Of a stretch of DNA of 46,379 bases, positions 104 through 42,717 are shown in pieces. Below the pieces are notes generated by a model. It did not search any database. It was given only the letters and a program-made list of their open reading frames with translations, and was not told the DNA's origin. Each line of letters starts with the position of its first letter. The stretch's first letter is position 1. Both the position numbers and the translations under genes were made by a program. The stretch is from a virus (lineage: Duplodnaviria > Caudoviricetes), in IMG/VR virus record IMGVR_UViG_3300017963_000371, positions 1-46,379 of that record. The stretch is one strand, 5' to 3'.

Positions 104-233
104 TTTTTGACGGCTGTAAATAGTTAGTAATCCTGTTTTCCTTTCCATCTTTTTCTCCCTAGTTTTTGTTCAATCCGTCAAAGAAGAGGCATTTTTCGTC
201 CTCTTCTTTAAGAGTTTGGACAAGATTGGTGCT

Positions 234-536
234 TTAGTGAAGAACTCTGATAGTAGTGTAGGAAATCCTGGAACGTTTCTTGAGATAGCCTTTTAGCTCA
301 AGATAGTTCTTTGCCCACTGAACTATCTCAGAGCTGGTCTTTTCTCTCAGAACAAAAAATCTTCCTCCCCGCAACTTTCTTGGTGTCTTGGGTTGGTTAT
401 AGACCTTCTGTTCTACGAGGTTGAAATGCTCTTTCTTCATGAATCTGTTAGCTGGACTAACTTTCGGAAAGCTAGAGTTGAGAATATTAGCAAGAGCGCG
501 TTTTTCTTCTGGTGTACGTTTCATTTTTCTCTCCAT
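234..536 (-). CDS. Hypothetical early protein (basic)
   Basis: ORF in a tightly packed minus-strand early cluster; no motif recognised. Confidence 0.6.
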   Translation of the reverse strand: MERKMKRTPEEKRALANILNSSFPKVSPANRFMKKEHFNLVEQKVYNQPKTPRKLRGGRFFVLREKTSSEIVQWAKNYLELKGYLKKRSRISYTTIRVLH

Positions 537-556
537 TAAAATAATTCGTTAAAACT

Positions 557-799
557 TCAAACAGGACAGCTCTTTGAAAAAGCCGCCAGACTAAAAACTG
601 AGCTAAGGATGGAAGTAAAGAATCTAACCAAAGCCCATGAAGGTGTGTTCCAAGGTGTTATGAGTGAGATTAGAATAAGTACTAATGCTATTAAGAGAAA
701 TAGATTACTTGAAATTCTCATCTTCTCACTTTCCATCCAGCCGGGCAACCGTAGTAGGTTGTTTTGTTTTTCTTCTCTTCTGCTGGTACAGTGTACCAT
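557..799 (-). CDS. Small membrane protein (true start probably near 721, MRISSNLF)
   Basis: Two hydrophobic segments (LFLLIALVLILISLI; FFTSILSSVFSLAAF); ATG near 721 overlaps the stop of the upstream ORF. Confidence 0.5.
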   Translation of the reverse strand: MVHCTSRREEKQNNLLRLPGWMESEKMRISSNLFLLIALVLILISLITPWNTPSWALVRFFTSILSSVFSLAAFSKSCPV

Positions 800-1119
800 T
801 TGAGAGGTGCTAGAGGAGTTTCCTCTTTGTCCGAAGAAACAAGAAACCAGACTGTTCCCACAGGCTTAATTTTAGCGCCAAATTGGCTCAGCAAAGGACG
901 TAAACGACCGAGAAGAAAGATAGTTTGCATCTCTTTGTAGGGAATCCTGATTTGAATATGCCCACTGTTGTTATGAAGTTGGGCGATTTTATGTTCTCTT
1001 AGATAGTAGGTAGTGAAGATTCTACCCACTACAACTCTAGTGAAGTTCTTTGCACTTGTCAAAGGTTTTCGACTGAAGAAGCTCTGTGCTGCTTCGGTCG
1101 CGATTCTTGAATATTTCAT
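718..1119 (-). CDS. Hypothetical early protein
   Basis: ATGA-coupled to upstream ORF, GGAG RBS. Confidence 0.65.
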   Translation of the reverse strand: MKYSRIATEAAQSFFSRKPLTSAKNFTRVVVGRIFTTYYLREHKIAQLHNNSGHIQIRIPYKEMQTIFLLGRLRPLLSQFGAKIKPVGTVWFLVSSDKEETPLAPLKWYTVPAEEKKNKTTYYGCPAGWKVRR

Positions 1120-1439
1120 AATTCTTTCTCCAAACAGCGTTTGATTTTTTGCTCATGGTGAAAGGAAGCAAATCTTTTCAACTCTTCTCTATCCCCGTGA
1201 TTGTTTAATTTGAACTTCAGGGGCCTTCTCATTGCCTCTGAAGGCCAAGCAGGGTAGAACCAGAGAGTTAAAAGTTGCTGATCACCGGAACCATTTACAA
1301 TGAGATGATAGGCCGATCCGAGGGGTGTTAGTGCAAGGGCGTCTTGGTACCACTTCAACTTTGTTATCTTAACGTTCATCTTTCTTCCTCCTGTGTTGAC
1401 TTGCTCTTCAGTGCAAAAGTCGTCATCTCTTGCAGACAA
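1116..1439 (-). CDS. Hypothetical early protein (start probably near 1379, MNVKITK)
   Basis: GGAGGA RBS before MNVKIT. Confidence 0.6.
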   Translation of the reverse strand: MSARDDDFCTEEQVNTGGRKMNVKITKLKWYQDALALTPLGSAYHLIVNGSGDQQLLTLWFYPAWPSEAMRRPLKFKLNNHGDREELKRFASFHHEQKIKRCLEKEL

Positions 1440-1630
1440 GGAGAGTTTTATTTCTCTCCTTGTTTCGCTTTGGTTAGGTTAAGACAAATTCAACTGTGGC
1501 TGAGTTTGTCATTCCTATCTCTTCTGCGTCCCGATCTACAATGAAAGGCAGAACAAGACTAAGAATGATTACAATAATCAGGATTATCTCAAGTAGTGCG
1601 TTTGGTATCACCTCCTTTCTGCTTTTTAAG

Positions 1631-1936
1631 TTAAATGAGAGTAGTCCGTATTCCCAACTCTTCGGTAACTAAGACCGCCTCTTGCTCAAAGCGGTCTTTA
1701 TAAACTTCTGCCACCATCCTTATTGTGGGCACTAATGATGACGTCTCTATTATGACAGTAACTATTTTGCTTCTTTCCTTTTCCCCATTCCAGTATCCGA
1801 TACTTTCTGTAACGGTGAAGCCTGGGATGGACTTTGCAAGAACGCCTGACTCAAAGCCAAGCCATTCATCAAGAGTAAGTTCGGTTCCATTGGGCCGAGA
1901 GAGACCGAAATAAATCTGGATCTTATGGGCTTTCAT
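1631..1936 (-). CDS. DUF3574-like / PII-SAM-lyase-fold protein
   Basis: Motifs YFGLSRP, GFTV..SIGYWNG.KERS, FEQEAVL; AAGGAG RBS. Confidence 0.7.
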   Translation of the reverse strand: MKAHKIQIYFGLSRPNGTELTLDEWLGFESGVLAKSIPGFTVTESIGYWNGEKERSKIVTVIIETSSLVPTIRMVAEVYKDRFEQEAVLVTEELGIRTTLI

Positions 1937-1949
1937 TCTGATCTCCTTC

Positions 1950-2177
1950 TTAGCAAGGTTTATTGTTTAATTCTCTGAACCCTGCTAGGCTCGTGCTAAG
2001 AGCTACTCTGCGAAAGTTAATTGACTTCCGATTATGGGTTATGGAATAAATGCTGTTCTCCCTTTTTTTGAACTTAAGTGGAGAGGTGGAGTTTCTTGGT
2101 GTTGTTCTCTTGGCAGAAAGAGAACGATTGGTTTTTTGGCTCTGAATACTTTTTGGGCTGATTCTAATAGGTTTCAT
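1950..2177 (-). CDS. Hypothetical basic protein
   Basis: ATGA overlap with upstream ORF, GGAGGA RBS. Confidence 0.5.
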   Translation of the reverse strand: MKPIRISPKSIQSQKTNRSLSAKRTTPRNSTSPLKFKKRENSIYSITHNRKSINFRRVALSTSLAGFRELNNKPC

Positions 2178-2446
2178 TTTTCTTCCTCCCTTAGCTGTCC
2201 ACTTGGAGCCAGAGTTTTCCGGTAATAAGAGAATAATCGCTCTCTTTCACTAAGTGTTAACGATTGGTTAAAGATTGCTTTGCGTAGGAAACTATAGCCA
2301 TCTTTAAGATAGAATGTGATAATTAGGTACAATCTTGGAGCTGTATTTTTGGCGATTGTGGCATTAGTAAAATTAAAGCTTTCTTTCATCTTCTTTCCTC
2401 CTGCTGAAGTTAAGAGAGAAGTTTTCTTTTTTTCTTCCCTCCTCAC
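2174..2446 (-). CDS. Hypothetical protein (start probably MKESFNF near 2389)
   Basis: GGAGGA RBS before MKESF. Confidence 0.55.
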   Translation of the reverse strand: MRREEKKKTSLLTSAGGKKMKESFNFTNATIAKNTAPRLYLIITFYLKDGYSFLRKAIFNQSLTLSERERLFSYYRKTLAPSGQLREEEK

Positions 2447-2454
2447 CTCAGAAG

Positions 2455-2569
2455 GTTTGCAAATGGTGAGGTTGAGAACACTCTGGGCGGACTTATCCCT
2501 TGAGTTTAATCAAAAACTACTGGATTTTTGCCAACTTCCAAAAGATTCTTTCCCTCACCATTTGCAAAC
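2455..2569. repeat. Perfect 17-bp inverted repeat
   Basis: GTTTGCAAATGGTGAGG (2455-2471) / CCTCACCATTTGCAAAC (2553-2569). Confidence 0.9.
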
Positions 2570-2990
2570 TTTTCTTCTTTGCAATCGATTGACTTGTTTG
2601 AGCAGTTTTCTCTTCCAAGGAGAATCAAGAATCCGAAGGAGTGTTAACCGGTATTAACTCTAATCCTCAGCACAATCTTTTCTTGTTCTAGGTTGAAAGA
2701 AAAGTTTAGCTGCTCACTAGAGAGAGAAAACTAATCTTTCTCTCTCCGGTTAGAAGCTAAGGTTCTAACTAGCAGGTTTTCCCTGCTACTTTCAGCATTG
2801 ATGTTACCTCTTTTTGGTTGAATTTCTTGCGGCTTTTTTGAAGTACATCTTTTTCCCTTCATTGGAGCAAGAGGCACCAAGTTCTTTTTTTCTAGGGAGA
2901 AGCGCGTGAATTCTTCACTTTAACCTCCTTGGCAGAGCTTTCTCTGTCCAGTTAATGGTTTGGTAGTTAGGATTTCCTTTTTTCTAACCA

Positions 2991-3104
2991 GCCAGCAGAG
3001 AAGGAAAGGTGCTATGAACGAACATGCTTTCCTGCTCTAATTGCTGTTTAGCATTTTTATTCAGTTGTCAAAGAGCTGTTTTTCTTGGAGTCGCTTTATT
3101 AAGC
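2991..3104 (-). promoter_or_regulatory. rrn-like leader copy A: small hairpin + boxA + conserved stem-loop
   Basis: Minus strand: GCTTAATAAAGC (3104-3093), GCTCTTTGACAACTGAATA (3076-3058), stem-loop with apex AGCATGTTCGTTCATAGCACCT (3028-3007). Confidence 0.75.
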
Positions 3105-3139
3105 CCGCTTATCTCCTTTCTTTTCTTTTCTCTTACCTT

Positions 3140-3168
3140 ACTGTAAGAGATTTTCCAGAAAAGGTCAA
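3140..3168 (-). promoter_or_regulatory. sigma70-type early promoter A
   Basis: TTGACC-17 nt-TACAGT on minus strand, A-rich upstream element. Confidence 0.8.
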
Positions 3169-3409
3169 GGAAAAGTTGATTTTTTCTTTGTTTATTTTCA
3201 ACTTTTTTTTTCTGATTGTTATCTCCAACAACGAGTGCTTGAAAGGCATTCATTTAGATGAATTAATCTTTTATTTATGAAGACCTGTGAATGCCTGATG
3301 ATGTGGTAATAGGTATTAGGGCAGTGTTGACTTCTTCTTAGATCAATTCTGTAGTGTCGATAGGTTTGGTCAAAGCGTTCTTTTGGTGTCATGAGAATCT
3401 CCTTTGTAG

Positions 3410-3773
3410 TGTCTCAGGTGCGACAAGTGAGACGATTGAGACAGTTGAGCACCCCCCCCCTCCTATAGTTGGAGATTAATTGAGGATGCTTAATGATTTT
3501 AGTAAGTTAGTTTTAAGTGACTGATTTTGCGTGTGTTTTATTCATCAGTTTAGTTAATTATATATTAAATATATATAAAAAATATTGATATAAACATATT
3601 TAGGAGCTTCTAAAGCACTGAAATGACTAAGTTTTTTCCGTTAGATTTTTATATATTTTGTAATTTGAAAGAAAAGACTTGACAAGGAAATCAAGCCTTC
3701 TCTTTTCTTCTTTTCTTGAGGGCACCCCCCTGTCTCAAGTGTCTCATTTGCCTCAACTGTCTGCCTTGAGACA
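3410..3773. other. Putative replication origin (inverted TGTCTCA/TGAGAC iterons flanking an AT-rich core)
   Basis: Iteron-like motifs at 3410, 3428, 3437 and 3731, 3740, 3767; GCACCCCCC at 3449 and 3722; very AT-rich 3540-3680; no convincing ORF. Confidence 0.55.
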
Positions 3774-4212
3774 TTTCAAATATGCCCGCCCGCTTCCAGT
3801 TCCTCAAGCGTTATTCTTGTTTGCCCTGCCTTTCGTGCTCCCTGTTCCATCTCCGGCGGCCCGTCACACCCTGCCAAGAGAACCAAAACCAACAAAATTC
3901 CTAACCATTTCATCTAACCACCTCCACTCGGTAATTTTTGTTACCACCATTCCTAAGAAGCCAGCAGAAGTTTCTAACTCTAATTCCATTAAGTACGCTT
4001 CTCCTGACTTCCTTTTCCAAACTTCCAGGTTATTCTAAGTTTCATCCTAGTTCTCTCTGTTGAGCCACTCGTTGAAATTCTCACCTGTTCTCTCTTCTCT
4101 TTCGTTGATAGGATTGAGAAGAGAGAAGAAAAATTGAACTGTCCAGATAACAAGCATAGCTGGCAATGTCAGTAGTTTAACTAACGTTTTCATGACAGCC
4201 TCCTTTGAGTGC

Positions 4213-4596
4213 TTACCTACACATAAAAATCAACCTGTTTCCGTGTTCGTCTTCAGTTGGGTAGTCTGCGAACACAAACTCCACCAGCCGTTCCCATCCC
4301 TTTGGGACTGGATGACTCCTGTTTATGTGGTTACCGCCCCTGCGTCGGTACTCATTACCGCCGTTGACATAAAAGTACATTGGCTCACCACCTTCAGGGC
4401 TACCAAAATTAAACCTAACGCATGATGGAAGCCCATCTTCTTTCACTATTTTTCTGATGTTCGTTGCATATTCTCGACATGATATCATAATGTTCTCCAT
4501 GTTTAGGGTTTGTTGTGCTGCTTTCTGTCTACTCTTGCCCACCTGAGTGTGGAAGAAGAGTAGAAAGGAGAGCTTATAAGATCTCCATCCCCTCAC
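4213..4596 (-). CDS. Hypothetical early protein (start probably MENIMIS near 4500)
   Basis: ORF downstream of promoter B. Confidence 0.5.
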   Translation of the reverse strand: MRGWRSYKLSFLLFFHTQVGKSRQKAAQQTLNMENIMISCREYATNIRKIVKEDGLPSCVRFNFGSPEGGEPMYFYVNGGNEYRRRGGNHINRSHPVPKGWERLVEFVFADYPTEDEHGNRLIFMCR

Positions 4597-4768
4597 CTTC
4601 CACTGCTTCCTCGGCCAAAAAGATCAATCCTTCCAGCTCTTCGTCTGTTGGAACTCTCTTCTTCCACCCTGTGAAGTTACAAATCAATCTAACAACCTGA
4701 TCCTCAGAGAGCCACTCACTCCAGTAACAAATACAACTAGTTTTGCTTGTGTTCATAACAACCTCCAC
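4574..4768 (-). CDS. First early gene after promoter B, small acidic protein (start probably MNTSKT)
   Basis: GGAGG RBS before ATG near 4756. Confidence 0.55.
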   Translation of the reverse strand: MEVVMNTSKTSCICYWSEWLSEDQVVRLICNFTGWKKRVPTDEELEGLIFLAEEAVEGEGMEIL

Positions 4769-4794
4769 TCTTTCTTTTCTTTTCTATTAGCCTA

Positions 4795-4900
4795 ACCACT
4801 AGTCAGAGCCTAGCAGGTGCTATTAACGAACATGCTCCTAGACTCTAACTACTAGTTATTCAGTTTTCAAAGATCCTGAAGGAGGCAGGCTTTATTAAGC
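4795..4900 (-). promoter_or_regulatory. rrn-like leader copy B: small hairpin + boxA + conserved stem-loop
   Basis: Minus strand: GCTTAATAAAGC (4900-4889), GATCTTTGAAAACTGAATA (4875-4857), 14-bp stem with apex AGCATGTTCGTTAATAGCACCT (4836-4815). Confidence 0.75.
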
Positions 4901-4943
4901 TCTTTTCTTTCTCTTCCCCTCTTCTTTCTTTTGCTTTCACTTT

Positions 4944-4972
4944 ACTGTAGACGATGGTTAGAACAGAGTCAA
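4944..4972 (-). promoter_or_regulatory. sigma70-type early promoter B
   Basis: TTGACT-17 nt-TACAGT on minus strand; same -10 as promoter A. Confidence 0.8.
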
Positions 4973-5270
4973 GAGAAAAGTGAAGAGAAGAGAGAGTTTT
5001 CTAAGAACACCAAGAAAACCAACTACCTAAACCAACCCCTGGTAGTGCTTCAACCCCTAGCATCTACACCACACTAGCCTCACCTAGTCAGAGCCTAGCT
5101 AGTAAGAGAGCGAAACCTAGAGAGGAGAGAAATTTTGCTAACCCTGCCCTCCCCTAATGGGGAAGATGGGGAGATAGATATGAATATGTGCCAACAATAC
5201 AAAATATCTAAAAAATCCCACTAACCCAGGTTTACCCAGGTTCTTTGTCGTTATAACACTAACTTTCCTC

Positions 5271-5299
5271 TTGACAAACAGCGAAAAATATTGTATACT
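5271..5299 (+). promoter_or_regulatory. sigma70-type promoter of the morphogenesis operon
   Basis: TTGACA-17 nt-TATACT, about 40 nt upstream of the terS ATG. Confidence 0.85.
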
Positions 5300-6659: not shown

Positions 6660-8186
6660 ATGCTAGATCTGAACATGGCGTCAAAAGAAGAACTACAAGA
6701 CCTAATGGCTCTGTGTTCAGTTTCTACAGAAGCGATGGCGAAGTTATTCTTTCCAAGACGCTTCACAGCAGAATTTTCACCTCTTCATCATGAGATCTTT
6801 GACGCTATAGATTCAAATGCACAAAAAATAGCTATCGCTGCTCCTCGTGGAATTGGCAAAACATCAATAGTGGGTCTAGCTCTTGCTGCTAGAAAAATCC
6901 TCTTCCAGCAATGTCATTATGTTCTCTATGTCTCAAAGAGTGCAGAGAATTCAATGATCCAAACAGAGAACCTAAAACGTGAGTTAATGGCTCATCATTT
7001 GGTAAGAGATCTTTTTGGAGGGATTAAATCCAAAACAAATGCAGTTATAGAAGAGACATTTTCTAAGAAAAGTTGGGTCGCCAGTATTGGAGCTAATCCT
7101 GATCCAGAGTCTTCGATTCTTATTCTTCCTCGTGGTTCTGGACAGCAGGTTCGTGGCTTACTTCATGCCAACTATCGACCAGATCTGATCATCGTCGATG
7201 ATCTTGAAGATCCAGATACAATCGAAAGTGATGAGCAGAGAGCAAAAAGAAAAAGTTGGTTTTGGGCTGATTTAGTCAAATGCGTTAGTCGTGTTAATCC
7301 TGATTATCAGATAGTCTATATTGACACACTAAAGCACGAAGATGCTCTTCTTCAGCATCTACTAGACAATTCAGGTTGGTTATCTATTCATCAAGAGTTA
7401 TGTGATGACTCCCTAAAATCCAATGCACCAACTCTGGTATCGGATGAAGAAATCAGGGCTGATTACGAATCCTACAAAGAAGATGGAGAGCTTGATGTTT
7501 GGTATAGAGAGAACAGAAACCTAGCTATCTCCAAAGAAGATGCTGTTTTTAAGTCAGAGTATTTTGACTACTACGAGCCATCTGAGTTAATAGCCTCTAA
7601 AGAGTACCGTCATCTTAGAACAGTAGTAATAGTTGACCCAGCTAAGACAGTTAAATTACATTCAGCAGATAGTGCTATTGTTGGAATTAGCGTTGATCTT
7701 CAAAATCACAAAATTTACCTTAGAGATGTGATTGCTGGAAAATTCTACCCAGAAGACATCTACAAGCAGAGTCTTCAGATGGTTAAAAATTTACGGGCGT
7801 GTACATTAGCGGTGGAGGTGACTAGTTTAAGTGAGTTCATCGTTCAGCCATTTAAGAACCAGATGCGTGTTGAGGGAGTATTTCCTCGCTTCATGGAGCT
7901 TAATGCTAGAGGAAAGAAAGAAGATCGTGTAGCAGCTCTTGCGCCTTACTATAGGCAGGGTTGGATTAAGCACAATAAGAATTGTTGTGATAAACTAGAG
8001 CAGCAGCTTTTGACTTTTCCTAGACCAAAGCTTTGGGATGTGATGGATGCATTTGCGTATATAGTTGAGCTTATGGAGAAGGACAAGGATTACTTTGATC
8101 CAGAAGACTTTGGTCTTGAGCCTGATGAAGAAGAGTACGATGATATCTATAATGAAGATAAGATGGATGATTGGAGGGTTTATTGA
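6660..8186 (+). CDS. terL: Terminase large subunit
   Basis: Walker A APRGIGKT, Walker B LIIVDDLE, RNase H-like nuclease VIVDPA and DVMDAFAY. Confidence 0.95.
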   Translation: MLDLNMASKEELQDLMALCSVSTEAMAKLFFPRRFTAEFSPLHHEIFDAIDSNAQKIAIAAPRGIGKTSIVGLALAARKILFQQCHYVLYVSKSAENSMIQTENLKRELMAHHLVRDLFGGIKSKTNAVIEETFSKKSWVASIGANPDPESSILILPRGSGQQVRGLLHANYRPDLIIVDDLEDPDTIESDEQRAKRKSWFWADLVKCVSRVNPDYQIVYIDTLKHEDALLQHLLDNSGWLSIHQELCDDSLKSNAPTLVSDEEIRADYESYKEDGELDVWYRENRNLAISKEDAVFKSEYFDYYEPSELIASKEYRHLRTVVIVDPAKTVKLHSADSAIVGISVDLQNHKIYLRDVIAGKFYPEDIYKQSLQMVKNLRACTLAVEVTSLSEFIVQPFKNQMRVEGVFPRFMELNARGKKEDRVAALAPYYRQGWIKHNKNCCDKLEQQLLTFPRPKLWDVMDAFAYIVELMEKDKDYFDPEDFGLEPDEEEYDDIYNEDKMDDWRVY

Positions 8187-8428
8187 TGCGACATGAGCTG
8201 AAACTGGAGTCCTGTTACTATATAGCTGCTTTAGACAGAGAGAAGACTTTTGAAGTGCGTTATAATGGTGATAGAGGTTTCCAGAAAGGTGATGTGGTGA
8301 AATTTAGAGAGTATAAAAAAGGACGTTATACTCTTAATAAATTCTACGCTACTATAACCTACGTAACTAATTATCACCAAAAAGAAGATTGGGTAGTTTT
8401 TGGTTTTCGTATTCATTCAGAGGAATAA
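8186..8428 (+). CDS. ASCH/DUF3850-domain protein
   Basis: HELK...KTFEVRYN.DRGFQKGD motif; TGATG-coupled to terL. Confidence 0.85.
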   Translation: MRHELKLESCYYIAALDREKTFEVRYNGDRGFQKGDVVKFREYKKGRYTLNKFYATITYVTNYHQKEDWVVFGFRIHSEE

Positions 8429-8431
8429 CTG

Positions 8432-8836
8432 ATGCCTACATTTAGACAGAAGCCGCTAGAGGTTGAAGCATTTCAGCTTACTCCAGATAATTACATTGCA
8501 GTAGAGCAGTGGCCGGAATGGTTAAGAGAGGCAGAGCAAAAGCATATGTCAGAAGTTGGCGCTATGTGGAGAAGGACTTCCAGCCATTGTAACCATCCTT
8601 GGATGATCAATACTCTTGAAGGTCAGCATGTTGCTTCTATGTATGATTACATAGTTCAAGGTGTTGAAGGTGAGATTTATCCCTGCAAGCCGCATATTTT
8701 TGAGCTGACGTATGAGATGGTGGAAGCGACTAAGGATCAAGAAGTTGTTACGGAAAACTTTAGGAAGCACATTAAAGAGATCTTTCCACTAGAAGGGCCT
8801 GAGAGTTTTAATGCTCCATGCTTTAGTGGTGGTTGA
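8432..8836 (+). CDS. Conserved phage protein (PGDYG-like)
   Basis: FRQKPLEVEAFQ...INTLEG...DYIVQGVEGEIYPCKPHIFELTYE. Confidence 0.8.
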   Translation: MPTFRQKPLEVEAFQLTPDNYIAVEQWPEWLREAEQKHMSEVGAMWRRTSSHCNHPWMINTLEGQHVASMYDYIVQGVEGEIYPCKPHIFELTYEMVEATKDQEVVTENFRKHIKEIFPLEGPESFNAPCFSGG

Positions 8837-8865
8837 GGTGATTGAATTTAGTCCGGGAGACTAAA

Positions 8866-9168
8866 ATGAAAAAGATAAAACTTCGTCCATATCCTGGTGT
8901 CCTTTGGGTTGCTAAGACGCAGAAAGCTTTTAAGAGGAAGCATAAGATCTTATTTTATCAAGAAGCTGAAGATGTGGGCTATGGGAAGATGGTTACAAAT
9001 GGCGAGCAGTATCTGATCTACGCTTCAAGCATCCCTATTCTTGTTCACGAGTTAAGTCATGCGGTAATTTATCTATTTGAACATGTTGGCATTCCAATTG
9101 ATCCAAAAAATGATGAAGCATTTTGCTATATGCTAGGACATCTGGTAGATAAAATAACTAAGGAGTAA
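8866..9168 (+). CDS. Small HEXXH zincin-like phage protein
   Basis: LVHELSHAV...NDEAFCY; GGGAG RBS before ATG 8866. Confidence 0.7.
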   Translation: MKKIKLRPYPGVLWVAKTQKAFKRKHKILFYQEAEDVGYGKMVTNGEQYLIYASSIPILVHELSHAVIYLFEHVGIPIDPKNDEAFCYMLGHLVDKITKE

Positions 9169-9173
9169 TTAAA

Positions 9174-9410
9174 ATGGACATTGCTAGTCAGCTATTTGAG
9201 TATGAAGGATGGGATGATATAGGTGATTCAGATTCGCAGTTTTATGATTGTGTACTAAAAGTTCCATTGTGCGGATTTCCTGCTGGCTCAAAGGTCGAAA
9301 TTGTTGTTCTGATCTTATCTGAGTCAAAATTGCAGATAATGGATCAGTATGCAGAAGAAGGAGAGTACAAAATTAATGAATCATGTAAATTAAAACTAAC
9401 TGCGGAGTAG
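9174..9410 (+). CDS. Hypothetical acidic protein
   Basis: AAGGAG RBS, in operon. Confidence 0.6.
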   Translation: MDIASQLFEYEGWDDIGDSDSQFYDCVLKVPLCGFPAGSKVEIVVLILSESKLQIMDQYAEEGEYKINESCKLKLTAE

Positions 9411-9417
9411 CTAACCT

Positions 9418-11406
9418 ATGCCCCCAAGATTAAATGGTTCCCTAACGCTCCAAGATCGCTTGGGGACAGCTAAGAGAAAAGATTATCCTCAGTATCGAGA
9501 GAGATATCCTGAAGGAGTTGAATTAAAACCAGGAACGAAAATACATGATAAGTTAGCAGCTATGATTTTAACTAGAGCTACTGACTCTCATACAGCCATT
9601 AGTCAGAGGTTCTCAACTTGGAATGACATAGACAAGACTCTAACTACCTATATTGATCTCTCAGCTAGTGACACCAAAACTCAAACAATCAACACCAAGA
9701 GAGCAGAGAAAAGACCTATCTCAATTGTCTTTCCTAACTCCTATGCCATTCTTGAGACAATGCTTTCTTACATGGTTATGGCATTTTTTCAAGATCCGAT
9801 CTTCCGCTATGTAGGAAATAATCCAGAAAGCGTCATAGGAGCTATGCTTATGGAGAGAGTTATTCAACAGCAATGTGAATACTCAAAAGTTCCATTAGCT
9901 CTTCATACAATGTTTCGTGATAACTTTGCTTATGGGATTGGTATTGCGGCACCTACATGGAAAGTTACTACTGGGAAGAAACCTATTGTTAGACCTGTAA
10001 CTGTACCAGGAGCACTTGGTGGGATGACTCAAGCTGGAAGAGAGATTGAATGGATTGATGCTACTCTTCACGAAGGTAATGCGTTAATCAACATCGACCC
10101 TTATCTATATCTTCCTGATCCTTCAGTAGCAGTTAATAATGTTCAAGACGGAGAGTTCGTAGGTTGGTTGAATTCAACTAACTTAATGAATCTGCTGTCT
10201 GAAGAACAGAACGATGATGACTTGTTTAATGTTAATTATCTTCGTCATGTAGAGACTGGTCAATCAAGCCTTTTGCAGGCAGATAATTCCAGACGAACAC
10301 AGAAAACTGGAGTTAACAAGAGAGATAGTGTCTCTAATACCTATAAAACCACTATTGACACTATCACACTCTATGTTAAGCTAATCCCCAGAGATTGGAA
10401 TCTTGGCGATTCTGACTACCCAGAGGTTTGGTTGTTTGAATTAGCTGCTGATAGTATTATTGTTCGGGCAAGAGAACTTGGTGATGCACAAGGTAAGTTT
10501 CCTATAGTAGTAAGTGCTAGCGAGAGCGATGGTTACAGCGCAACTCCTATAAGTCGGTTAGAAGTTCTTAATGGACTTCAAGATATTCTGAATTGGTTGT
10601 TCAACAGCCATATCGCCAATGTCAGAAAAGCACTAAATGACATGTTTATTGTCGATCCAGGGATAGTCAACATCAACGACCTCAAAGATCCAGAGCCAGG
10701 AAAGCTAATTAGAACTCGTAGACCTCACTGGGGTCAAGGTGTTCAACACGCGATTCAACAATTCCAGGTGCATGATGTGACTCGTGGCAACATGGCTGAT
10801 AGTCAGATCATCAGTCAACTAATGCAGAGTCTCAGCGGAACAGATAATCCAATGATGGGTAATCTAAGACAGGGCGGTCCTGAGAGATTAACTGGCGCTG
10901 AGTTTCAGGGAACAATGGCTGGTGCAGTTAGTCGCCTCGAGCGAGTAGCTAGACTTACTAGCTATCAAGCTCTTCAAGACATGGCTATGATGTTTGCATC
11001 TAATGTTCAGCAGTTTATGGATGAAGATGCTTACATTCAAACTGTCGGAAGTTGGCCTGAGAAGCTGTCTGAGAATTTTGGTGTTGGTCCAACTGATCCT
11101 ATTTCAGTCAGTCCATTTGATCTGATTATAGATTACAATGTTCGACCAAGAGATGGAAGCATTCCTGGTGGAAATTTCTCGCAGGCTTGGATTCAGCTTT
11201 ACCAGATCTTAGGAAATAGCCCTGAACTAGCTCAGCGTTTTGATATGGTGAGGATCTTTAAGCACATTGCTGTTAATCTTGGCGCAAAGAATGTTGATCG
11301 TTTTGAACGGCAAGAAGTGCCACAAGTAGCCGCTCAGCCAGATCAACAGGTGGCCGCTCAGGTTCAGCAAGGAAATCTAGCTCCGACTCAGGAGGTGCTT
11401 GGATGA
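9418..11406 (+). CDS. Portal protein
   Basis: 662 aa after TerL; YGIGIA, IDPYLYLPDP, MMG...RLTGAE motifs and a Gln-rich C-terminus typical of podoviral portals. Confidence 0.88.
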   Translation: MPPRLNGSLTLQDRLGTAKRKDYPQYRERYPEGVELKPGTKIHDKLAAMILTRATDSHTAISQRFSTWNDIDKTLTTYIDLSASDTKTQTINTKRAEKRPISIVFPNSYAILETMLSYMVMAFFQDPIFRYVGNNPESVIGAMLMERVIQQQCEYSKVPLALHTMFRDNFAYGIGIAAPTWKVTTGKKPIVRPVTVPGALGGMTQAGREIEWIDATLHEGNALINIDPYLYLPDPSVAVNNVQDGEFVGWLNSTNLMNLLSEEQNDDDLFNVNYLRHVETGQSSLLQADNSRRTQKTGVNKRDSVSNTYKTTIDTITLYVKLIPRDWNLGDSDYPEVWLFELAADSIIVRARELGDAQGKFPIVVSASESDGYSATPISRLEVLNGLQDILNWLFNSHIANVRKALNDMFIVDPGIVNINDLKDPEPGKLIRTRRPHWGQGVQHAIQQFQVHDVTRGNMADSQIISQLMQSLSGTDNPMMGNLRQGGPERLTGAEFQGTMAGAVSRLERVARLTSYQALQDMAMMFASNVQQFMDEDAYIQTVGSWPEKLSENFGVGPTDPISVSPFDLIIDYNVRPRDGSIPGGNFSQAWIQLYQILGNSPELAQRFDMVRIFKHIAVNLGAKNVDRFERQEVPQVAAQPDQQVAAQVQQGNLAPTQEVLG

Positions 11407-11612
11407 AGAAAGAGAATGACCTACGCATCATGTTTAATTCTGAAGGTTGGGATATTTATAGAACCTACTGGCAAGCGGAGATTAAGTCTATTCGTAATGA
11501 CCTAGAGAAACTTGATGATATTAAAGAGATTAAAAAGGCTCAGGGTCGCATTGACGCTATTCGCACTATGCTTTGTCCTGATACCAACTTCCACCTTATC
11601 TGCCAAGATTGA
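11403..11612 (+). CDS. Small conserved head-module protein
   Basis: ATGA overlap with portal, GGAGG RBS; F.SEGW...KAQGRIDAI pattern common between portal and scaffold. Confidence 0.7.
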   Translation: MKKENDLRIMFNSEGWDIYRTYWQAEIKSIRNDLEKLDDIKEIKKAQGRIDAIRTMLCPDTNFHLICQD

Positions 11613-11628
11613 CTGGAGTGAGCGTTGT

Positions 11629-13068
11629 ATGGTTATAGATTATGATTTTATTCATCAACTAGAAGGAGGTGTGTTAGCTGAAGGTTATGTACCTCAGCAG
11701 AATGGTGAAGCAATAGCGCAAAGTGGTGTGACTATTGGAGGAGGTATTGATTTAGGTCAGCAGAAGATTGAGGAGTTAGAGAATCTTGAGGTTGCTCCTG
11801 GTACATTAGCTAAGCTAAAACCATTCATTGGACTTCAGAAAGCTGATGCTATCGAAGCCCTAAAAGCATCTCCTTTAGTCTTAACTAACGAGGAAGCTGA
11901 AGAGCTAACTAAAAGGGTCATTGATCGCGATCTGGGAAAACTAAAATCACAGTACACGGAGCAAACTGGAGAGTCTTTTGACGATCTTCCAGCAGCAGCA
12001 CAGACTGTAGCTGCTTCACTAAATCACCAATACGGTAATCTTCCTTCAAAAACACCGAGATTTTGGAGCTTCTTAACTCAAGGCAAGCTGGATGAAGCAG
12101 TCGCAGAGCTTAAAGATTTTGGTGATAGATATCAATCACGACGACAGTCGGAAGCAGCTTTTTTAGAAAAAGGATTAAAAGAAATGGCAAAAGAAAAAAC
12201 TCCTGATGTAATAGATCAAACTGAGGATATGGTAGCTATGCTAGGCATAGAATCACCAGAAGAATTAGAAGAATTAGCGGTGGAAGAGCATGAAGATATT
12301 GGAGAAGAGCCACCTGAAAACGCTGAAGCAGATACGGAAGTTGACGAAGATGCAGATGATTCAGGTGTGGAAGAGGCTGGAGTGGCTGATGAGTCTGTGG
12401 ATGATTCTAATGAAGGAGATTCTGAAGATTCAGATAAAGAACCTGAACCAAAGGATCCAAAAGATGCTCAGATCGAAGCTCTTTTAACTCAGATACAAAG
12501 ACAAACAAACACGGTAGTAACTCCAGAAGTAGCTAAAGAAGAACCAGAAGCAGCACCTACTTCCAGTGAGGAAGAAGCTCCTTCACTTACTGAGTTCTTA
12601 GATAAACTTGACTTTGATGCGGCTCTCGAAGATCCAGACGCTTTTAAGCGCACGCTCGCTGAAGCCTTTTCTTTATCTCAGAAAGAAACCGTAGGTGCTC
12701 TTCAGAAAGTTGTCCCACAGACTGCTGCAACGACAGCCACTGAAGCTGTTAGAACGCAGCAGATGGTCAATCAGTTTTACGCTGAGAATAGTGACCTAGC
12801 AGAAAAGAAACAACTGGTTCAAATTGTAGCTCAGCAGATTGAATCTGATAATCCGAATACCCCCGTTGCAAAACTTTTGGAAGAAGCTGCCAAAGAAACT
12901 CGAAAACTTCTTGGCCTCCCGCCATTGAAGAAAACCCTTAAAGAGAAGCCTATACGAAAGAACAAAAAACCTGCTTTGCCTAAGCAGCAAGGCAAACGTA
13001 AAGCAACTCCAAAGAAGTTAACTAAACAACAAGAAATGATGATGGAGGTTTTGAACAGTTATGACTGA
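11629..13068 (+). CDS. Pesticin-like muramidase fused to capsid scaffolding protein
   Basis: IDYDFIHQLEG..GYVP..SGVTIGGGIDLGQ..SLNHQYG..Y.SRR.SEA, then an acidic linker, helical domain and Lys-rich tail; in-frame internal ATG 12184 with AGGA RBS. Confidence 0.8.
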   Translation: MVIDYDFIHQLEGGVLAEGYVPQQNGEAIAQSGVTIGGGIDLGQQKIEELENLEVAPGTLAKLKPFIGLQKADAIEALKASPLVLTNEEAEELTKRVIDRDLGKLKSQYTEQTGESFDDLPAAAQTVAASLNHQYGNLPSKTPRFWSFLTQGKLDEAVAELKDFGDRYQSRRQSEAAFLEKGLKEMAKEKTPDVIDQTEDMVAMLGIESPEELEELAVEEHEDIGEEPPENAEADTEVDEDADDSGVEEAGVADESVDDSNEGDSEDSDKEPEPKDPKDAQIEALLTQIQRQTNTVVTPEVAKEEPEAAPTSSEEEAPSLTEFLDKLDFDAALEDPDAFKRTLAEAFSLSQKETVGALQKVVPQTAATTATEAVRTQQMVNQFYAENSDLAEKKQLVQIVAQQIESDNPNTPVAKLLEEAAKETRKLLGLPPLKKTLKEKPIRKNKKPALPKQQGKRKATPKKLTKQQEMMMEVLNSYD

Positions 13069-14044
13069 AACAAGAATTAAACGAGAGCATAGGGAGCAGG
13101 TTCTCGATCAGGTTGCACACGTTAGTGATGCCAACAAAACGATGTATCCCTATGAGCATCGTGTAGAGATTACATTAACATCAACGACAAGCTCTACTGT
13201 TACTCCACCGAACGTAGATGAGGCTAGTGGAGAATATGTAGTTAAGCTAGTTAGTGTGGGTACTGGAAAAGTAACTGTTACTGGCATTGGGAATCTTGGT
13301 GCTGCTGGTAGTGAATTGCGGTTCTGGCCTGAAGCAGGTGAGTGGAAATCAAAAGTAACAACTGCTGGTTTGTTTGAAGTCTTTGACGACTTTACTGAGC
13401 AGACCTTGACAGAAGCAAATGGGCCTTGGATTGAGAATTCAGGAAGTGATGCTCAGGCTCTTGATCCTGCTATTAATGCTGCTGCTTGTGGTACAGTTAG
13501 ACTAGTAACAGGTAATGCTGACGGCACAACTGCTGCCGATGCTTCACAGATAGTTTGTCATCTTCCAATGACCGCTGCTGCAGGCGGTTTGTTTGGTGAA
13601 GTTCGACTTAAATGTGTTACTAATGTTGCCACTATGAGTCTGTTTGCTGGTTTTACTGATGTAACAACTCTTGAGGAACCATTTACTAACTCTGCTGATG
13701 TTATCACAAGTACAGCAAGTGACGCATTTGGTTTTCTTTATGACACTGATGCAACGACTGACACTTGGTGGACAGTGGCGGTAGATACTGATGTTGATGA
13801 TACAGGAAATGCAGCTATCACGGCTCTTCCGGTAGCAGATACGTATCAAGTATTGCGAGTAGAAAGTGACATTGCTGGAGACGTTCTTAAGTTTTATGTC
13901 GATGGCGTTCATGTAAAAACCCTCAGTGGTACAGGTGGTATTACTCCTGGAACTAGCCTGTATTTCACAGTGGTTGCTTGTGCTACTACTACGACTAGTA
14001 AGACTGTTGATATTGATTATATTAACATAGGACATTGCCGCTAA
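13061..14044 (+). CDS. Putative head decoration/fibre protein (beta-rich, lectin-like C-terminal domain)
   Basis: Thr/Ala/Asp-rich; FDDF...KFYVDG...DIDYI pattern; between scaffold and MCP. Confidence 0.55.
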   Translation: MTETRIKREHREQVLDQVAHVSDANKTMYPYEHRVEITLTSTTSSTVTPPNVDEASGEYVVKLVSVGTGKVTVTGIGNLGAAGSELRFWPEAGEWKSKVTTAGLFEVFDDFTEQTLTEANGPWIENSGSDAQALDPAINAAACGTVRLVTGNADGTTAADASQIVCHLPMTAAAGGLFGEVRLKCVTNVATMSLFAGFTDVTTLEEPFTNSADVITSTASDAFGFLYDTDATTDTWWTVAVDTDVDDTGNAAITALPVADTYQVLRVESDIAGDVLKFYVDGVHVKTLSGTGGITPGTSLYFTVVACATTTTSKTVDIDYINIGHCR

Positions 14045-14053
14045 GGAGGTTAA

Positions 14054-14689
14054 ATGAGTTTAATTGGACGCTTATTTAAGATGGGAATACAGGTTGAATA
14101 TGATCAACCTGTGACCTTCTTAAATGGAATAACAGCAGATATTACAGGTGATATTACAGGTGATATCACCGGAGATGTAACTGGAGATTTAACCGGAGAT
14201 CAGTCTGGAGGAACTGTAACTCCAACAAGTTTAATAAGAACCAGTGAATATGTGCAAGGTATTGCAGGAGCTAAGGCTGGTACTACTGCTGGTTGGACAG
14301 TACGAGCTGGAGATAACATCTCTCTTGCTACTTGTCCTGCTAGTCAAACTTCAGCTACTCTGGTTCTTCCAGTTACTGTTGATTTGAGAGTAGGTTGGAC
14401 AATTACAGGATTTAAGGTAATCGGTCAAATTGAGAGCGCTGGTAACACAGCAACTCTTGATGCCGATCTAAGAAAACACACTTCTGCTGCTGGTGATGTC
14501 GCTGATGCTAGTGTAGGGGCGATAACTCAAATTAGTGCAACAGAAGATACAGCAGTTGCAACTGCTAAAACGGGACTGAGCGAGGTCGTAGCGGCTGGTG
14601 AAACGTTCTATGTTCTCCTGACAGCAACTACAGCGGCTTCTACTGATGTCGCTCTTCAAGGTATAACTTTAACAGTAAGTGAGGTGTAA
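14054..14689 (+). CDS. Putative head fibre/decoration protein with GD[IVL]T repeats
   Basis: ADITGDITGDITGDVTGDLTGD; AAGGAGG RBS. Confidence 0.55.
   Translation: MSLIGRLFKMGIQVEYDQPVTFLNGITADITGDITGDITGDVTGDLTGDQSGGTVTPTSLIRTSEYVQGIAGAKAGTTAGWTVRAGDNISLATCPASQTSATLVLPVTVDLRVGWTITGFKVIGQIESAGNTATLDADLRKHTSAAGDVADASVGAITQISATEDTAVATAKTGLSEVVAAGETFYVLLTATTAASTDVALQGITLTVSEV
14138..14200 (+). repeat. 12-bp coding tandem repeat, about 5 copies (gatattacaggt)
   Basis: gatattacaggt gatattacaggt gatatcaccgga gatgtaactgga gatttaaccgga gat. Confidence 0.9.
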
Positions 14690-14692
14690 CTA

Positions 14693-15961
14693 ATGACTGT
14701 AATGTTAGGAATGCGTGGTAATGGTGATTGGGTAGATGACCAGAGGCCAAAGAGTTGGAGAGAAATGATTCTTCGTTTGTATCCAAATGGTTCAATGCCT
14801 TTGACTGGAATCACCAGTCAGATTGGTAGTGAAGCTTTGACAGATCCTGAGTTTAACTGGTGGACAAAAGCACTGGCTTCTCAGGGTGGTGCAGTAACAA
14901 ATGTCTACACCGACTCTGGAATGACTGCTGCTTATGTTAGTGGTGGAGTTGCTGGACAGGCTCTTTATGTTAAGTGTGCAGAAGCTGTCGCAGAGGAGAT
15001 TCGAGCTGGACATCAGGTTCTTTTGCGGGATGCCAGTGATTTGGATGTTGACGTGAACGCTAAGGTTACTAGTGTTCTGCTGAATGGAGCTAACTCACGA
15101 GTTAGCGTGAAGCTTTTAGAGGCTGATGACAATTCTTCTAATGGAGATCTGAGTGATTGTGATGCTATCCTTGTAGTTGGCAACATCAATGCTGAAGGGG
15201 CAGTAATGCCTGATCCTATTGCTTATAATCCTACAAAGATTTATAACTATAGCCAGATCTTTAGGACGCCCCTGAGCATGACGCGGACTGCCAAGAAGAC
15301 CAAACTGCGCACCGATGATCAGTGGGCAGAAGCCAAACGTGAGGCTCTTGAGCTGCATGGTATTGAAATGGAGAAGGCTTTTCTTTTTAGTATTGCTACA
15401 GAAGGGACCGGCTCTAATGGAAAGCCAGAGCGAACAACAGGAGGATTAGTTCAGGCTGTTAAGAGTTACGGCGTGAATGCTAACTATGTAACAGATGCTA
15501 ACTACGCTGGCAAGGCTTGGTTAACAGGTGGCGAGGAGTGGCTTGATTCTACTTTAGAGCAGATCTTCCGTTATGGTGAAGCTGAGAAAATGGCTATCTG
15601 TGGTTCTGGTACAATTCTTGGAATCAACCGTCTTGCAAAAGCCTCTGGTCAGCTTCAGCTAATGCCAACTACTTTGGCTTATGGCATTAGGGTGATGGAG
15701 TGGATTACTCCATTTGGTAGCATCTACATGAAAACACATCCGCTGTTCTCTTATGATGCAGCTACCCGAAACTCCATGCTTATCTTTGAGCCTAAGAATC
15801 TTAAGTATCGTTATATTGATGACACTAGGTACATTGATCAGAGTAATACTTCCACTGCTGATGGTGAGGAAGGTGAATATCTGACTGAGTGTGGTCTTGA
15901 GTATCACTTCCCTAATGGCTGGGGATGGTTGAACGGCTTTAATCAGGCTAATACTGTATGA
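14693..15961 (+). CDS. Major capsid protein (HK97 fold, DUF5309/SU10-like)
   Basis: NYSQIFRTPLSMTRTA, EMEKAFLF, RTTGGL, TPFG, LTECGLE motifs. Confidence 0.9.
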   Translation: MTVMLGMRGNGDWVDDQRPKSWREMILRLYPNGSMPLTGITSQIGSEALTDPEFNWWTKALASQGGAVTNVYTDSGMTAAYVSGGVAGQALYVKCAEAVAEEIRAGHQVLLRDASDLDVDVNAKVTSVLLNGANSRVSVKLLEADDNSSNGDLSDCDAILVVGNINAEGAVMPDPIAYNPTKIYNYSQIFRTPLSMTRTAKKTKLRTDDQWAEAKREALELHGIEMEKAFLFSIATEGTGSNGKPERTTGGLVQAVKSYGVNANYVTDANYAGKAWLTGGEEWLDSTLEQIFRYGEAEKMAICGSGTILGINRLAKASGQLQLMPTTLAYGIRVMEWITPFGSIYMKTHPLFSYDAATRNSMLIFEPKNLKYRYIDDTRYIDQSNTSTADGEEGEYLTECGLEYHFPNGWGWLNGFNQANTV

Positions 15962-15969
15962 TTCTATTA

Positions 15970-15987
15970 GGGAGGGGAAACCCTCCC
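15970..15987 (+). promoter_or_regulatory. GNRA-tetraloop hairpin after MCP (no U-tract)
   Basis: GGGAGGG-GAAA-CCCTCCC immediately before the AAGGAG RBS of the next gene. Confidence 0.7.
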
Positions 15988-15997
15988 AAGGAGTACT

Positions 15998-16720
15998 ATG
16001 AATCTTCTTGAGATCAGAACTCAGTTTGCTAAGCTTAGTGGTCGCTATGATTTAGTAAACAACGACTTCACAAACAACGGTGCAGATTATTTTCTAAAGG
16101 CTGGTCTCAAGTTTCTTGATAGGCGAGTCGAATTTGATAAAGACTTTGGTTTGCATTTTACACAAAAATCTAGTGCCTCGTATTTTACTGAGGTAGCCTC
16201 ATATAGAACAATAGAGAGCGTTTGGTATGCAGACTCTGCTGATGGTAGGTATGAGTTGGAATATATGGCTCCCCTAGAGTTTCAAGAAACTTATGGAACC
16301 GAGCCCTACTATGATGGAGATTCTGGAGATCCAAAATACTGGACTATGAGAATCACAAGAGAAATTCCTGATGGGACTTCTCCAGATGTAATAGGGAATT
16401 ATGCTACGGAAATTCTGGCTGATGGAACTCAAGTTCTTAAGCAAGGGATTCTAGTGGCTCCGGCCTTAACTAATGCAGGACAGCTTGAGCTTTGGGGTAA
16501 GTTTGATACAGCTTTCCCTTCTTTGGACACAGATACTAATTATTGGTTCTCTAAATTTGAGCATATAGCTATTAATGCTGGATTGTTTCAGTTAGAGAAT
16601 TCTTATCGCAACACTCAAGGAGCTAAGGATTATTTAGCTGCAATTGATATTGAGCTTGCTGGGATTGATAAAGATACTGTCGAGGATGATCTTCGACGAG
16701 CGGAGGTTATGAATGGATAG
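15998..16720 (+). CDS. Head-tail adaptor (tail tubular protein A-like)
   Basis: Position after MCP; MNLLEIRTQF start, GDPKYW, D.DTNYW motifs. Confidence 0.65.
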   Translation: MNLLEIRTQFAKLSGRYDLVNNDFTNNGADYFLKAGLKFLDRRVEFDKDFGLHFTQKSSASYFTEVASYRTIESVWYADSADGRYELEYMAPLEFQETYGTEPYYDGDSGDPKYWTMRITREIPDGTSPDVIGNYATEILADGTQVLKQGILVAPALTNAGQLELWGKFDTAFPSLDTDTNYWFSKFEHIAINAGLFQLENSYRNTQGAKDYLAAIDIELAGIDKDTVEDDLRRAEVMNG

Positions 16721-17084
16721 AGAAAGAGAGCTTGTTAGCCAGTTAGCTAAGGGTGACTATGAGGCTTGGGCTGACCTGAAACAGTTAGTTATTCAGGAAG
16801 CTATTAAGATGCTACCTATGATTAATTCAGTGGTTGCAAAGAAAGCAGTTGGACTTGCTCAAGCGAGTAAGGAGTTTTATGAGAGGCATCCTGATCTTCA
16901 AGATAAGAAAGAATTAGTTACTAAAACTATGCAGCAACTAGAGGCTGATAAACCTGGACTTTCATTTGATGAACTATTAAATGAAACAGCTTCCTTAGCT
17001 TCTAAAGGATCTGCCGGAATTCCAGTTAATGCTAATCCACCTCGGAAATTGGATGAGCTTGATCTTGCTGTTGGTAAGTTATGA
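16713..17084 (+). CDS. Stand-alone paralog of the scaffold C-terminal domain
   Basis: EFYERHPDLQDKKELV..TMQQLEADKP..SFDELLNETA aligns with scaffold QFYAENSDLAEKKQLV..VAQQIESDNP..PVAKLLEEAA. Confidence 0.7.
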   Translation: MDRERELVSQLAKGDYEAWADLKQLVIQEAIKMLPMINSVVAKKAVGLAQASKEFYERHPDLQDKKELVTKTMQQLEADKPGLSFDELLNETASLASKGSAGIPVNANPPRKLDELDLAVGKL

Positions 17085-17569
17085 GAGAATTTAATTATGT
17101 CTACAAAAAGGGCCTCTCCATAGGATTGAGAAGCAGCAGCAAGAATAAGAGAGGTTCACAGGCTCTTGTGTTATCTACTGGTATGGTTCCAAGTGAGGAG
17201 ACTTTAGTTGCTCTTGATACGCAAAATAGATTAGACATAAGTACTATCTCACCTGCACCTAGATTTCCTTACCCTCAAATTTTTGAATTCGCTCAGGTTA
17301 CTATTTTAGCTACTGCTACTCAGATTTTTGAGGTGGCGAGTAATGGGACTTTAACTCAAAAGCTTGTTGGCTTAACTGAAGGGCATGTTTGGAGTGCTGC
17401 GGATTTTCATAATTTTATTGTTATGGTTAATGGAAAGCAGGCAATTTACAGGGATGGGCAGAGTTTAGTTTGGTCAGCAGATGATCCATATGGAATGGCA
17501 TCTGCTAGTGGTGTATGTAATTTTAACGGGCAGGCTATTTTAACTGCCCCTAATGTGGTGATCCCATGA
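17081..17569 (+). CDS. Tail nozzle / tubular protein B, N-terminal part
   Basis: Nozzle-like N-terminus and beta-propeller blades (WSAADFHNFIVMVNG, CNFNGQAIL) but only 162 aa. Confidence 0.6.
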   Translation: MREFNYVYKKGLSIGLRSSSKNKRGSQALVLSTGMVPSEETLVALDTQNRLDISTISPAPRFPYPQIFEFAQVTILATATQIFEVASNGTLTQKLVGLTEGHVWSAADFHNFIVMVNGKQAIYRDGQSLVWSADDPYGMASASGVCNFNGQAILTAPNVVIP

Positions 17570-18075
17570 AAAAGATTTTGACTATAGGATTAGCATTTCT
17601 TATGCTAACAGGGTGTGCTAATAAGGAAGTCTATAAGAAGTACGTAGTGGCAGAGAGTGTTAATAGAGCTAATTATTATGAAGCTGCTAAGAACACACCC
17701 TTGGTTGACATTAAACTTCCTGCTCCTGATGGAGAAGAGTATCATATAATAGTCAACCAAAATATTCAATATAGAGCAGTTCAACAAATCAAGGATAGCG
17801 AATGGGTTCCAGTTGCTACTGCTGGTGTGGTTGGCGGTCTTCAATTCTTAACTGGATGGACTTCCAGTCATTATAATTATAAGACCCAGAAGAACTATGT
17901 TGAGGCATTATCTGGAGACGATAATCCCACCATTGCTATTGGTGATAACGCATCGATTGATGACTCATTTGAATTTAGTGAAGTAAGGAATGGTTCAGGT
18001 AACGTCGGAACGAGCTCCGATAGCACAAGAACTAAAAAAGTAATGGAAGTAGTTGGAATAGGAGGCGCACAATGA
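17566..18075 (+). CDS. Lipoprotein
   Basis: MKKILTIGLAFLMLTG|C lipobox; second hydrophobic segment WVPVATAGVVGGLQFL. Confidence 0.8.
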   Translation: MKKILTIGLAFLMLTGCANKEVYKKYVVAESVNRANYYEAAKNTPLVDIKLPAPDGEEYHIIVNQNIQYRAVQQIKDSEWVPVATAGVVGGLQFLTGWTSSHYNYKTQKNYVEALSGDDNPTIAIGDNASIDDSFEFSEVRNGSGNVGTSSDSTRTKKVMEVVGIGGAQ

Positions 18076-19357: not shown

Positions 19358-19367
19358 AGGAGATGCT

Positions 19368-20282: not shown

Positions 20283-20290
20283 GGTAATTT

Positions 20291-24647: not shown

Positions 24648-24648
24648 G

Positions 24649-42688: not shown

Positions 42689-42717
42689 ATTGTAATCTAT
42701 TTTTTCTCTTTTGTCAA
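42689..42717 (-). promoter_or_regulatory. sigma70-type promoter
   Basis: TTGACA-17 nt-TACAAT on minus strand. Confidence 0.85.

Follow-up and report, generated by a model that had tools for sequence, protein, structure and literature searches.

Two boxA-bearing modules at the head of the early genes of an uncultured sediment podovirus: a probable T7-style early leader in duplicate

Why would a virus carry, at the head of its early strand, two copies of a promoter followed by the boxA word that bacteria place ahead of their rRNA genes? We addressed this question in a viral record of 46,379 nt (IMG/VR record IMGVR_UViG_3300017963_000371; hereafter the window, i.e., the whole stretch of DNA that was analyzed), which IMG/VR lists as linear and 97% complete. 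It encodes a SU10-type portal and capsid, a terminase, a UDG-fused family A polymerase, a primase, a ligase, and Sak4, with late genes on the plus strand from ~5290 and early genes on the minus strand from ~4760. An earlier note, made from the letters alone, had described two minus-strand modules (2991-3168 and 4795-4972, here modules A and B) sharing ordered blocks, and had proposed that the phage hijacks the host antitermination complex by mimicking rrn leaders. Both modules are indeed present, with their blocks in the same order.

Module B, all of whose features are on the minus strand, opens with a sigma70-type promoter, TTGACT-17-TACAGT (4944-4972), at the divergence point of late and early genes; this is the first early promoter, in the position that the boxA promoter occupies in relatives. 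It is followed by a 12-nt hairpin (4889-4900), which caps a longer purine-rich/CCTCC helix located 5' of boxA (i.e., in the boxB position), by the boxA word GATCTTTGAAAACTGAATA (4857-4875), and by a long stem-loop (4793-4858; 26 pairs, -32.2 kcal/mol) with a 22-nt apex (4815-4836). Module A repeats this layout on the same strand, with a sigma70-type promoter TTGACC-17-TACAGT (3140-3168), the hairpin GCTTAATAAAGC (3093-3104), the boxA word GCTCTTTGACAACTGAATA (3058-3076), and a long stem-loop (2987-3052; 23 pairs, -22.4 kcal/mol) with its 22-nt apex at 3007-3028. Compared block by block, the modules are identical at 5/6 positions of the -35, 6/6 of the -10, 12/12 of the hairpin, 17/19 of the boxA word, and 21/22 of the apex, versus only 6/17 of the promoter spacer. 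Their local alignment scored 177, while 486 random window segments gave a mean of 81 and a maximum of 112. Each promoter matches the consensus at 9/12 positions, and the promoter scan of the window showed a mild excess only (28 found vs 19.7 +/- 4.9 by chance). The exact 19-mer form of boxA is expected 8e-6 times in the window. The distance from the -10 to boxA is 65 nt in one module and 70 nt in the other, and that from the predicted start to boxA about 57 and 62 nt.

Folding analysis revealed that stem B was matched by none of 1000 shuffles (z -4.9), whereas the advantage of stem A was modest (z -1.9; 51/1000 as good). The arm sequences of the two stems differ, yet both pair. Stem B is strand-specific (-29.5 on the minus strand vs -13.0 on the plus strand for 4795-4858) and contains G-U pairs. 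In addition, the hairpin 5' of boxA beat base shuffles in both modules (p 0.026 and 0.014), and equilibrium folds paired the TTTG core with the purine-rich start. RNase III sites are roughly two-turn helices, and stems of 26 and 23 pairs are predicted to fit that size. An Rfam scan of the window found no family at threshold and no structural RNA. No leader-trailer helix was found (the best duplex was equaled by 8/30 and 2/30 shuffles), and no GU-rich run that might serve as a boxC was visible by eye 3' of boxA, host-type boxC being undefined. Several further roles were considered and set aside: a leader peptide in the apex, which holds an in-frame ATG (no synonymous change, and the ribosome site is misplaced in module B); mimicry of a tRNA T-loop or anticodon (the loop registers do not fit, as judged by eye); and a 12-bp complement of boxA A at 554-580 (no better than shuffles).

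The modules flank an AT-rich non-coding element (3415-3759; 74% in its core) that has inverted arms of 30 nt and a pair of G-run repeats, and which may be an origin or a packaging/terminus site; the module A promoter lies downstream of it. Similar AT-rich elements occur in Desulfofustis phage MD01 (L007, about 43000-43300) and in the relative L001 (about 4380-4620). Module A is followed by ~600 nt (2390-2986, minus strand) that lack a minus-strand ORF of 50 aa and an Rfam family, the listed ORF at 2174-2446 likely starting at an ATG at 2389; several long hairpins fall within this untranslated stretch (2706-2760; arms 2452-2478/2546-2572). The first ORF after module B (4574-4756, minus strand) encodes ~60 aa from the ATG at 4756, with a GGAGG ribosome site and no family assignment. 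Upstream of the module B promoter lie a 16-nt exact extra copy of the 3' arm of stem B (5084-5099, minus strand) and a divergent promoter matching at 11/12 positions (5271-5299, plus strand), which precedes the likely small terminase and the late genes. A possible third leftward promoter with an extended -10 (5249-5276, minus strand) has its -35 region in common with this rightward terminase promoter, and its transcript would carry the arm copy. A switch acting through that copy was rejected, with a pairing probability of 0.0 and no competing pairing predicted.

Since the boxA word had been defined from the window itself, GTDB provided an independent test of it. The 19-nt pattern occurs there in ~2,400 stretches (extrapolated from 4/64 parts), compared with ~17 by chance. 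Among 120 sampled loci, 51 flank rRNA genes (29 in 16S leaders and 22 in 16S-23S spacers), another 18 break off within 250 nt, and the other 51 lack rRNA evidence. This excess, together with the rRNA flanks, bears out the earlier match of the word to rrn boxA. The suggestion that the word might predict the host did not hold, because the identical word spans many phyla (by title, Desulfobacterota, Myxococcota, Bdellovibrionota, Acidobacteriota, Bacillota, and others). Within the class of a Desulfuromonadaceae bin, the word was present in 22 of 151 genomes (controls, 0), and Rfam placed a 16S gene beside 8 of the 20 Desulfuromonadia-class loci scanned. Ten folded leaders from this class have the order promoter-hairpin-boxA, with a C/T-rich discriminator and 38-52 nt between the -10 and boxA; the block order of the phage modules thus agrees with that of bacterial rrn leaders, whereas spacing and discriminator differ. 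The B. subtilis boxA consensus is AUGAUCUUUGAAA, and binding of NusB to it has been demonstrated, as stated in a passage of PMC13753749. Two bacterial arrangements were seen along the way. In one GTDB hit (L018), a CRISPR-like repeat follows boxA, as judged by eye. In a bacterial genome (G162:C1:2888445-2897261; L434, L450, L454-L457), six boxA words at ~1.26-kb or 2.5-kb spacing sit between tandem gene pairs (175 aa and ~308 aa), so that boxA punctuates a repeated protein-coding array.

We then asked how widely such leaders occur among relatives. A primase alignment yielded 473 IMG/VR relatives, of which 80 were kept at 35-44% identity; 49 of these plus L001 were taken up, 45 whole records were searched, and regions from 42 were analyzed. 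In 546,656 nt from the 42 records, mostly upstream of TerL, boxA cores at an identity of at least 13/17 numbered 17 on the early strand, with none on the late strand, the thresholds having been set after a first look at context, with a query word from the window and records that were not dereplicated. A strict scan placed a promoter 12-95 nt upstream of boxA in 13/42 records, whereas 20 Markov controls gave 0-2 boxA hits each and one promoter-boxA pair in total. The raw boxA count at up to 2 mismatches was barely above control (31 vs 24 in 45 records). A looser scan adds G008, G026, and G028, and hand calls add G010 and G014, for 18/42; the pair is absent from 29/42 by the strict scan and from 24 after these additions, some of the records being fragments. 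Across this large uncultured clade, boxA marks the early start site in 13-18 of 42 records. The boxA promoters of relatives occupy the point where late-strand coding yields to early-strand coding, and therefore we regard module B as the copy belonging to the clade and module A as the extra one. Only G028 among the relatives showed two sites of this kind. An A- or G-run follows boxA at 0.8-1.2 kb in 8/13 relatives, as does the AT-rich element in the window, and a hairpin before boxA was significant (p<0.05) in 4/13. A variant boxA core, TCATTGACAA, occupies the same position in G021, G030, and G008. MD01 has the gene order of the window and two early promoters around its AT-rich element, with no boxA there; since most relatives also lack a promoter-boxA pair, boxA is dispensable in the clade. 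Across IMG/VR, the exact 19-mer was found in ~140 stretches (119 loci in 97 clusters, of which 9 received a strict promoter call), and exact boxA leaders are thus common in viral contigs, even for one 19-nt spelling.

The earlier note had proposed a search of related contigs for the complete module. Run as exact patterns in IMG/VR, as blastn, and among TerL relatives, this search returned no homologue: three IMG/VR patterns gave 0 hits, cultured phages and plasmids gave short blastn matches only, and the module was absent from the TerL relatives L001-L007. Two other IMG/VR patterns were discarded. One had 2 hits in a single family, where a boxA-like word opens a small gene and the layout is unrelated, and the other had 28 hits, none with a promoter or apex. 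The exact apex was found 0 times in GTDB, and at 3 mismatches in 0/45 related records. The best match was 14/22 among the matches listed for the 97 viral boxA clusters and 16/22 when both strands of the retrieved regions were scanned, and 401 genomes from a phylum sample of Desulfobacterota type gave 4 apex hits vs 5 for the control. The sole echo of the 12-nt hairpin that we found is a GGGC/GCCC hairpin with an AATAAA loop in the first early leader of MD01 (L007 ~41738). Collectively, what is new at this locus is the presence of a second module together with the conserved hairpin and apex, none of which turned up elsewhere in the sequences searched. That the hairpin and the apex are both conserved in sequence suggests a binding partner.

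The earlier note also had the early unit run ~20 kb through two intrinsic terminators, which presupposes that the contig ends are joined. Bases 1-103 are identical to 46156-46258 (the start of one gene), with divergence beyond and a different upstream sequence; these shared ends are a strain variant or a duplication and do not make a clean circle. Because they share 103 nt before diverging, the early strand probably runs on across the join. Both terminators are real in that a minus-strand hairpin and U-tract are present at 42205-42243 and at 36143-36175 (the latter upstream of DNA polymerase/primase), ~7 and ~13 kb, respectively, from boxA A across the join, and our scan (hairpin at or below -11 kcal/mol plus T-tract) found only these two on the early strand. 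Each hairpin starts with GCCAG and has GTGAAA in its loop. The proposed read-through was not supported. A promoter matching at 11/12 positions and without boxA (42689-42717, minus strand) lies 0.5 kb before the first terminator, and terminators do not track boxA: one is present between Sak4 and polymerase in 7/16 boxA-positive vs 5/24 other relatives (p 0.17, by a crude scan). This promoter forms a cassette with a gene of no known family (42307-42651, 114 aa) and the terminator at 42205-42243, and in several relatives (G032, G035, G038) a small gene is likewise preceded by a strong promoter. As the earlier note had it, no phage RNA polymerase, N, or Q is recognizable; our family scan of 72 ORFs gave 0 hits for RNA polymerase, sigma, N, or Q families. 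Sequence comparison readily misses N proteins; the two basic early ORFs tested had no usable Atlas match, and arginine-rich windows, modest in degree, occur in 8/32 early ORFs.

The closest named phage is MD01 (TerL 44% identity), an uncultured phage whose host was predicted from CRISPR spacers, according to the part of bioRxiv 10.1101/2023.02.06.527410 that describes it. Given that prediction, the host of the record may tentatively be placed in Desulfobacterota. No perfect CRISPR-spacer-like match to 6660-25000, the segment searched, was found in the 401 genomes, where the portal gene had two ~70%, 130-nt matches. Among sequencing runs, no RNA run was listed as containing this DNA, and four DNA runs compared with 2300-4890 yielded short unrelated pieces only. 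L001 (G050), the closest relative in structural genes (TerL 61%, capsid 72%), lacks boxA, and its replication module looks different by eye, as in a mosaic genome. Elsewhere in the window, 11512-13068 encodes a fusion of a pesticin-type lysozyme domain with an acidic scaffold-like region, and 37396-38172 a metallo-beta-lactamase-fold hydrolase with a weak, below-cutoff match to the anti-Pycsar protein Apyc1.

What, then, do the modules do? Sequence, layout, identity with bacterial boxA, and conservation in relatives are observed; from these, and by analogy with T7, we infer transcription, Nus binding, and any effect on termination, and we consider it probable that the locus is a T7-style boxA early leader in duplicate, which would likely recruit host Nus factors as a protection from Rho. 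Each module would provide an early promoter for host RNA polymerase and then an exact rRNA-type boxA, at which, with no need for a phage N, the elongating polymerase would take up host NusB-NusE(S10), NusA, and NusG, as in the T7 early leader. The loaded complex would keep Rho off an early transcript that is untranslated in part. Module B would be the clade-wide copy heading the early strand, with a transcript that crosses the AT-rich element, and module A would restart transcription and reload the complex just past that element, ahead of the 600-nt untranslated stretch. The long stem 3' of boxA is probably a processing or stabilizing stem, of RNase III size, and the apex and 12-nt hairpin are probably binding sites for some partner. 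Two findings count against this explanation: C and G are about equally frequent on the early strand from 200 to 5000, and a strand that is not C-rich is a poor Rho substrate by E. coli rules (PMC5725501); and most relatives lack boxA. The explanation also leaves the sequence-level conservation of the hairpin and apex unexplained. A new antitermination element, in which these two blocks upgrade the host boxA/Nus complex to pass intrinsic terminators 7-13 kb away, strikes us as an outside chance; in a phage without its own polymerase, the blocks might act through a small phage protein or by touching RNA polymerase directly.

A related and comparably unlikely reading is that boxA, hairpin, and apex form nut-like or put-like sites that bind a phage protein or polymerase, read-through allowing DNA polymerase/primase to be expressed. 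The hairpin and apex are kept while the arms vary, as binding sites would be; only 7-35 nt separate each terminator from the next gene, so that a new promoter would hardly fit; and N-like systems exist outside lambdoids, as a section of PMC11893012 reports. Yet no N-like protein was recognized, the apex is missing from the related records, the presence of a terminator does not follow that of boxA, and leaky termination would equally feed the downstream genes. In lambda, antitermination at Rho-dependent and intrinsic terminators requires N, while Nus factors alone block Rho, as described in one part of PMC5725501. Since the rrn complex shifts NusA in a way that interferes with intrinsic termination, as a portion of PMC13753749 puts it, boxA may nonetheless have some effect on intrinsic terminators.

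Somewhat less probable still is that boxA tunes translation or termination down, as in E. coli suhB, with Nus loading repressing the first gene or coupling early expression to free NusB, or that it makes the leaders a Nus-factor sponge that slows host rRNA synthesis. The relevant text of PMC5725501 has suhB boxA repressing translation over up to 100 nt, and the first ATG lies 45-68 nt past boxA in 9/13 relatives and ~100 nt past it in module B; module A, however, has no ORF for ~600 nt, and antitermination is the better fit both to the T7 genetics and to a location where the early strand begins. It is improbable that the shared blocks survive from an ancient duplication or serve as operators in the DNA, boxA having no function in the RNA. 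In favor of this view, the GCTT-N4-AAGC close to the start site is palindromic as DNA, and the stray 16-nt arm copy attests to local duplication; against it, the blocks are 89-100% identical beside a diverged promoter spacer, boxA is strand- and position-specific in relatives, and stem B, with its G-U pairs, folds on the transcribed strand only.

The favored explanation, a duplicated T7-style leader, can be set beside the known systems. The put RNA of HK022 has two adjacent stem-loops that act on RNA polymerase without Nus factors, whereas the boxA in the modules argues for Nus use; the Rfam scan of the window gave no match. Leaders of suhB and of CRISPR arrays likewise carry boxA without being rRNA leaders, but these are host loci, and the suhB boxA represses rather than antiterminates. 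As in lambdoid nut/N and mEp021 Gp17, boxA adjoins a sequence-conserved hairpin in early leaders at more than one site per genome. Unlike nut, both sites are on one strand, no N-like protein is recognized, and the short hairpin is 5' of boxA, the 3' side being a stem of 23-26 pairs. Loops of nut boxB are of the GNRA type, and the small hairpin has no such loop.

The rrn leaders (boxB-boxA-boxC), whose antitermination complex comprises NusA, NusB, NusE, NusG, SuhB, and S4, have in common with the modules the exact boxA word and a hairpin between start and boxA, an order also given for rrn leaders in an excerpt of PMC8632103. No rRNA follows in the window, the -10-to-boxA distance is 65-70 nt rather than 38-52, the discriminator is purine-rich rather than C/T-rich, and there is no leader-trailer helix. 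The proposed mimicry of rrn leaders is therefore upheld for the boxA word and the promoter-hairpin-boxA order, and not for the discriminator or the leader-trailer helix, and 51/120 bacterial hits were themselves without rRNA evidence.

The closest parallel is T7, likewise a podovirus without an N protein, in which a host sigma70-type promoter is followed, at ~60 nt from the start, by an exact rrn-type boxA and, beyond it, by a long stem and the early genes. In the T7 record, the exact boxA GCTCTTTAACAA is at 813-824, 63 nt after promoter A3, and is followed by a long stem, which we take to be the RNase III site R0.3 although the record carries no such annotation, and by gene 0.3. Mutations in this anti-termination element make Gp2 dispensable, as mentioned in a passage of PMC3709561 citing Savalia et al. 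2010. Given this precedent, the strategy that the earlier note had inferred was already known: T7 has the same layout, its boxA has been shown genetically to matter, and N-independent use of host boxA is established for it. Our literature search on phage boxA found no report of such use for SU10-like podoviruses without their own polymerase. T7 has one boxA behind three promoters (A1-A3) and its own RNA polymerase, whereas the window has two full modules flanking the AT-rich element, no phage RNA polymerase found, a word of the TCTTTGAMAACTGAATA type, and a hairpin and apex conserved in sequence. Between the two natural copies, a pair of short RNA blocks persisted as the surroundings drifted, and these blocks offer a small handle on whether a boxA leader can be upgraded to beat intrinsic terminators.
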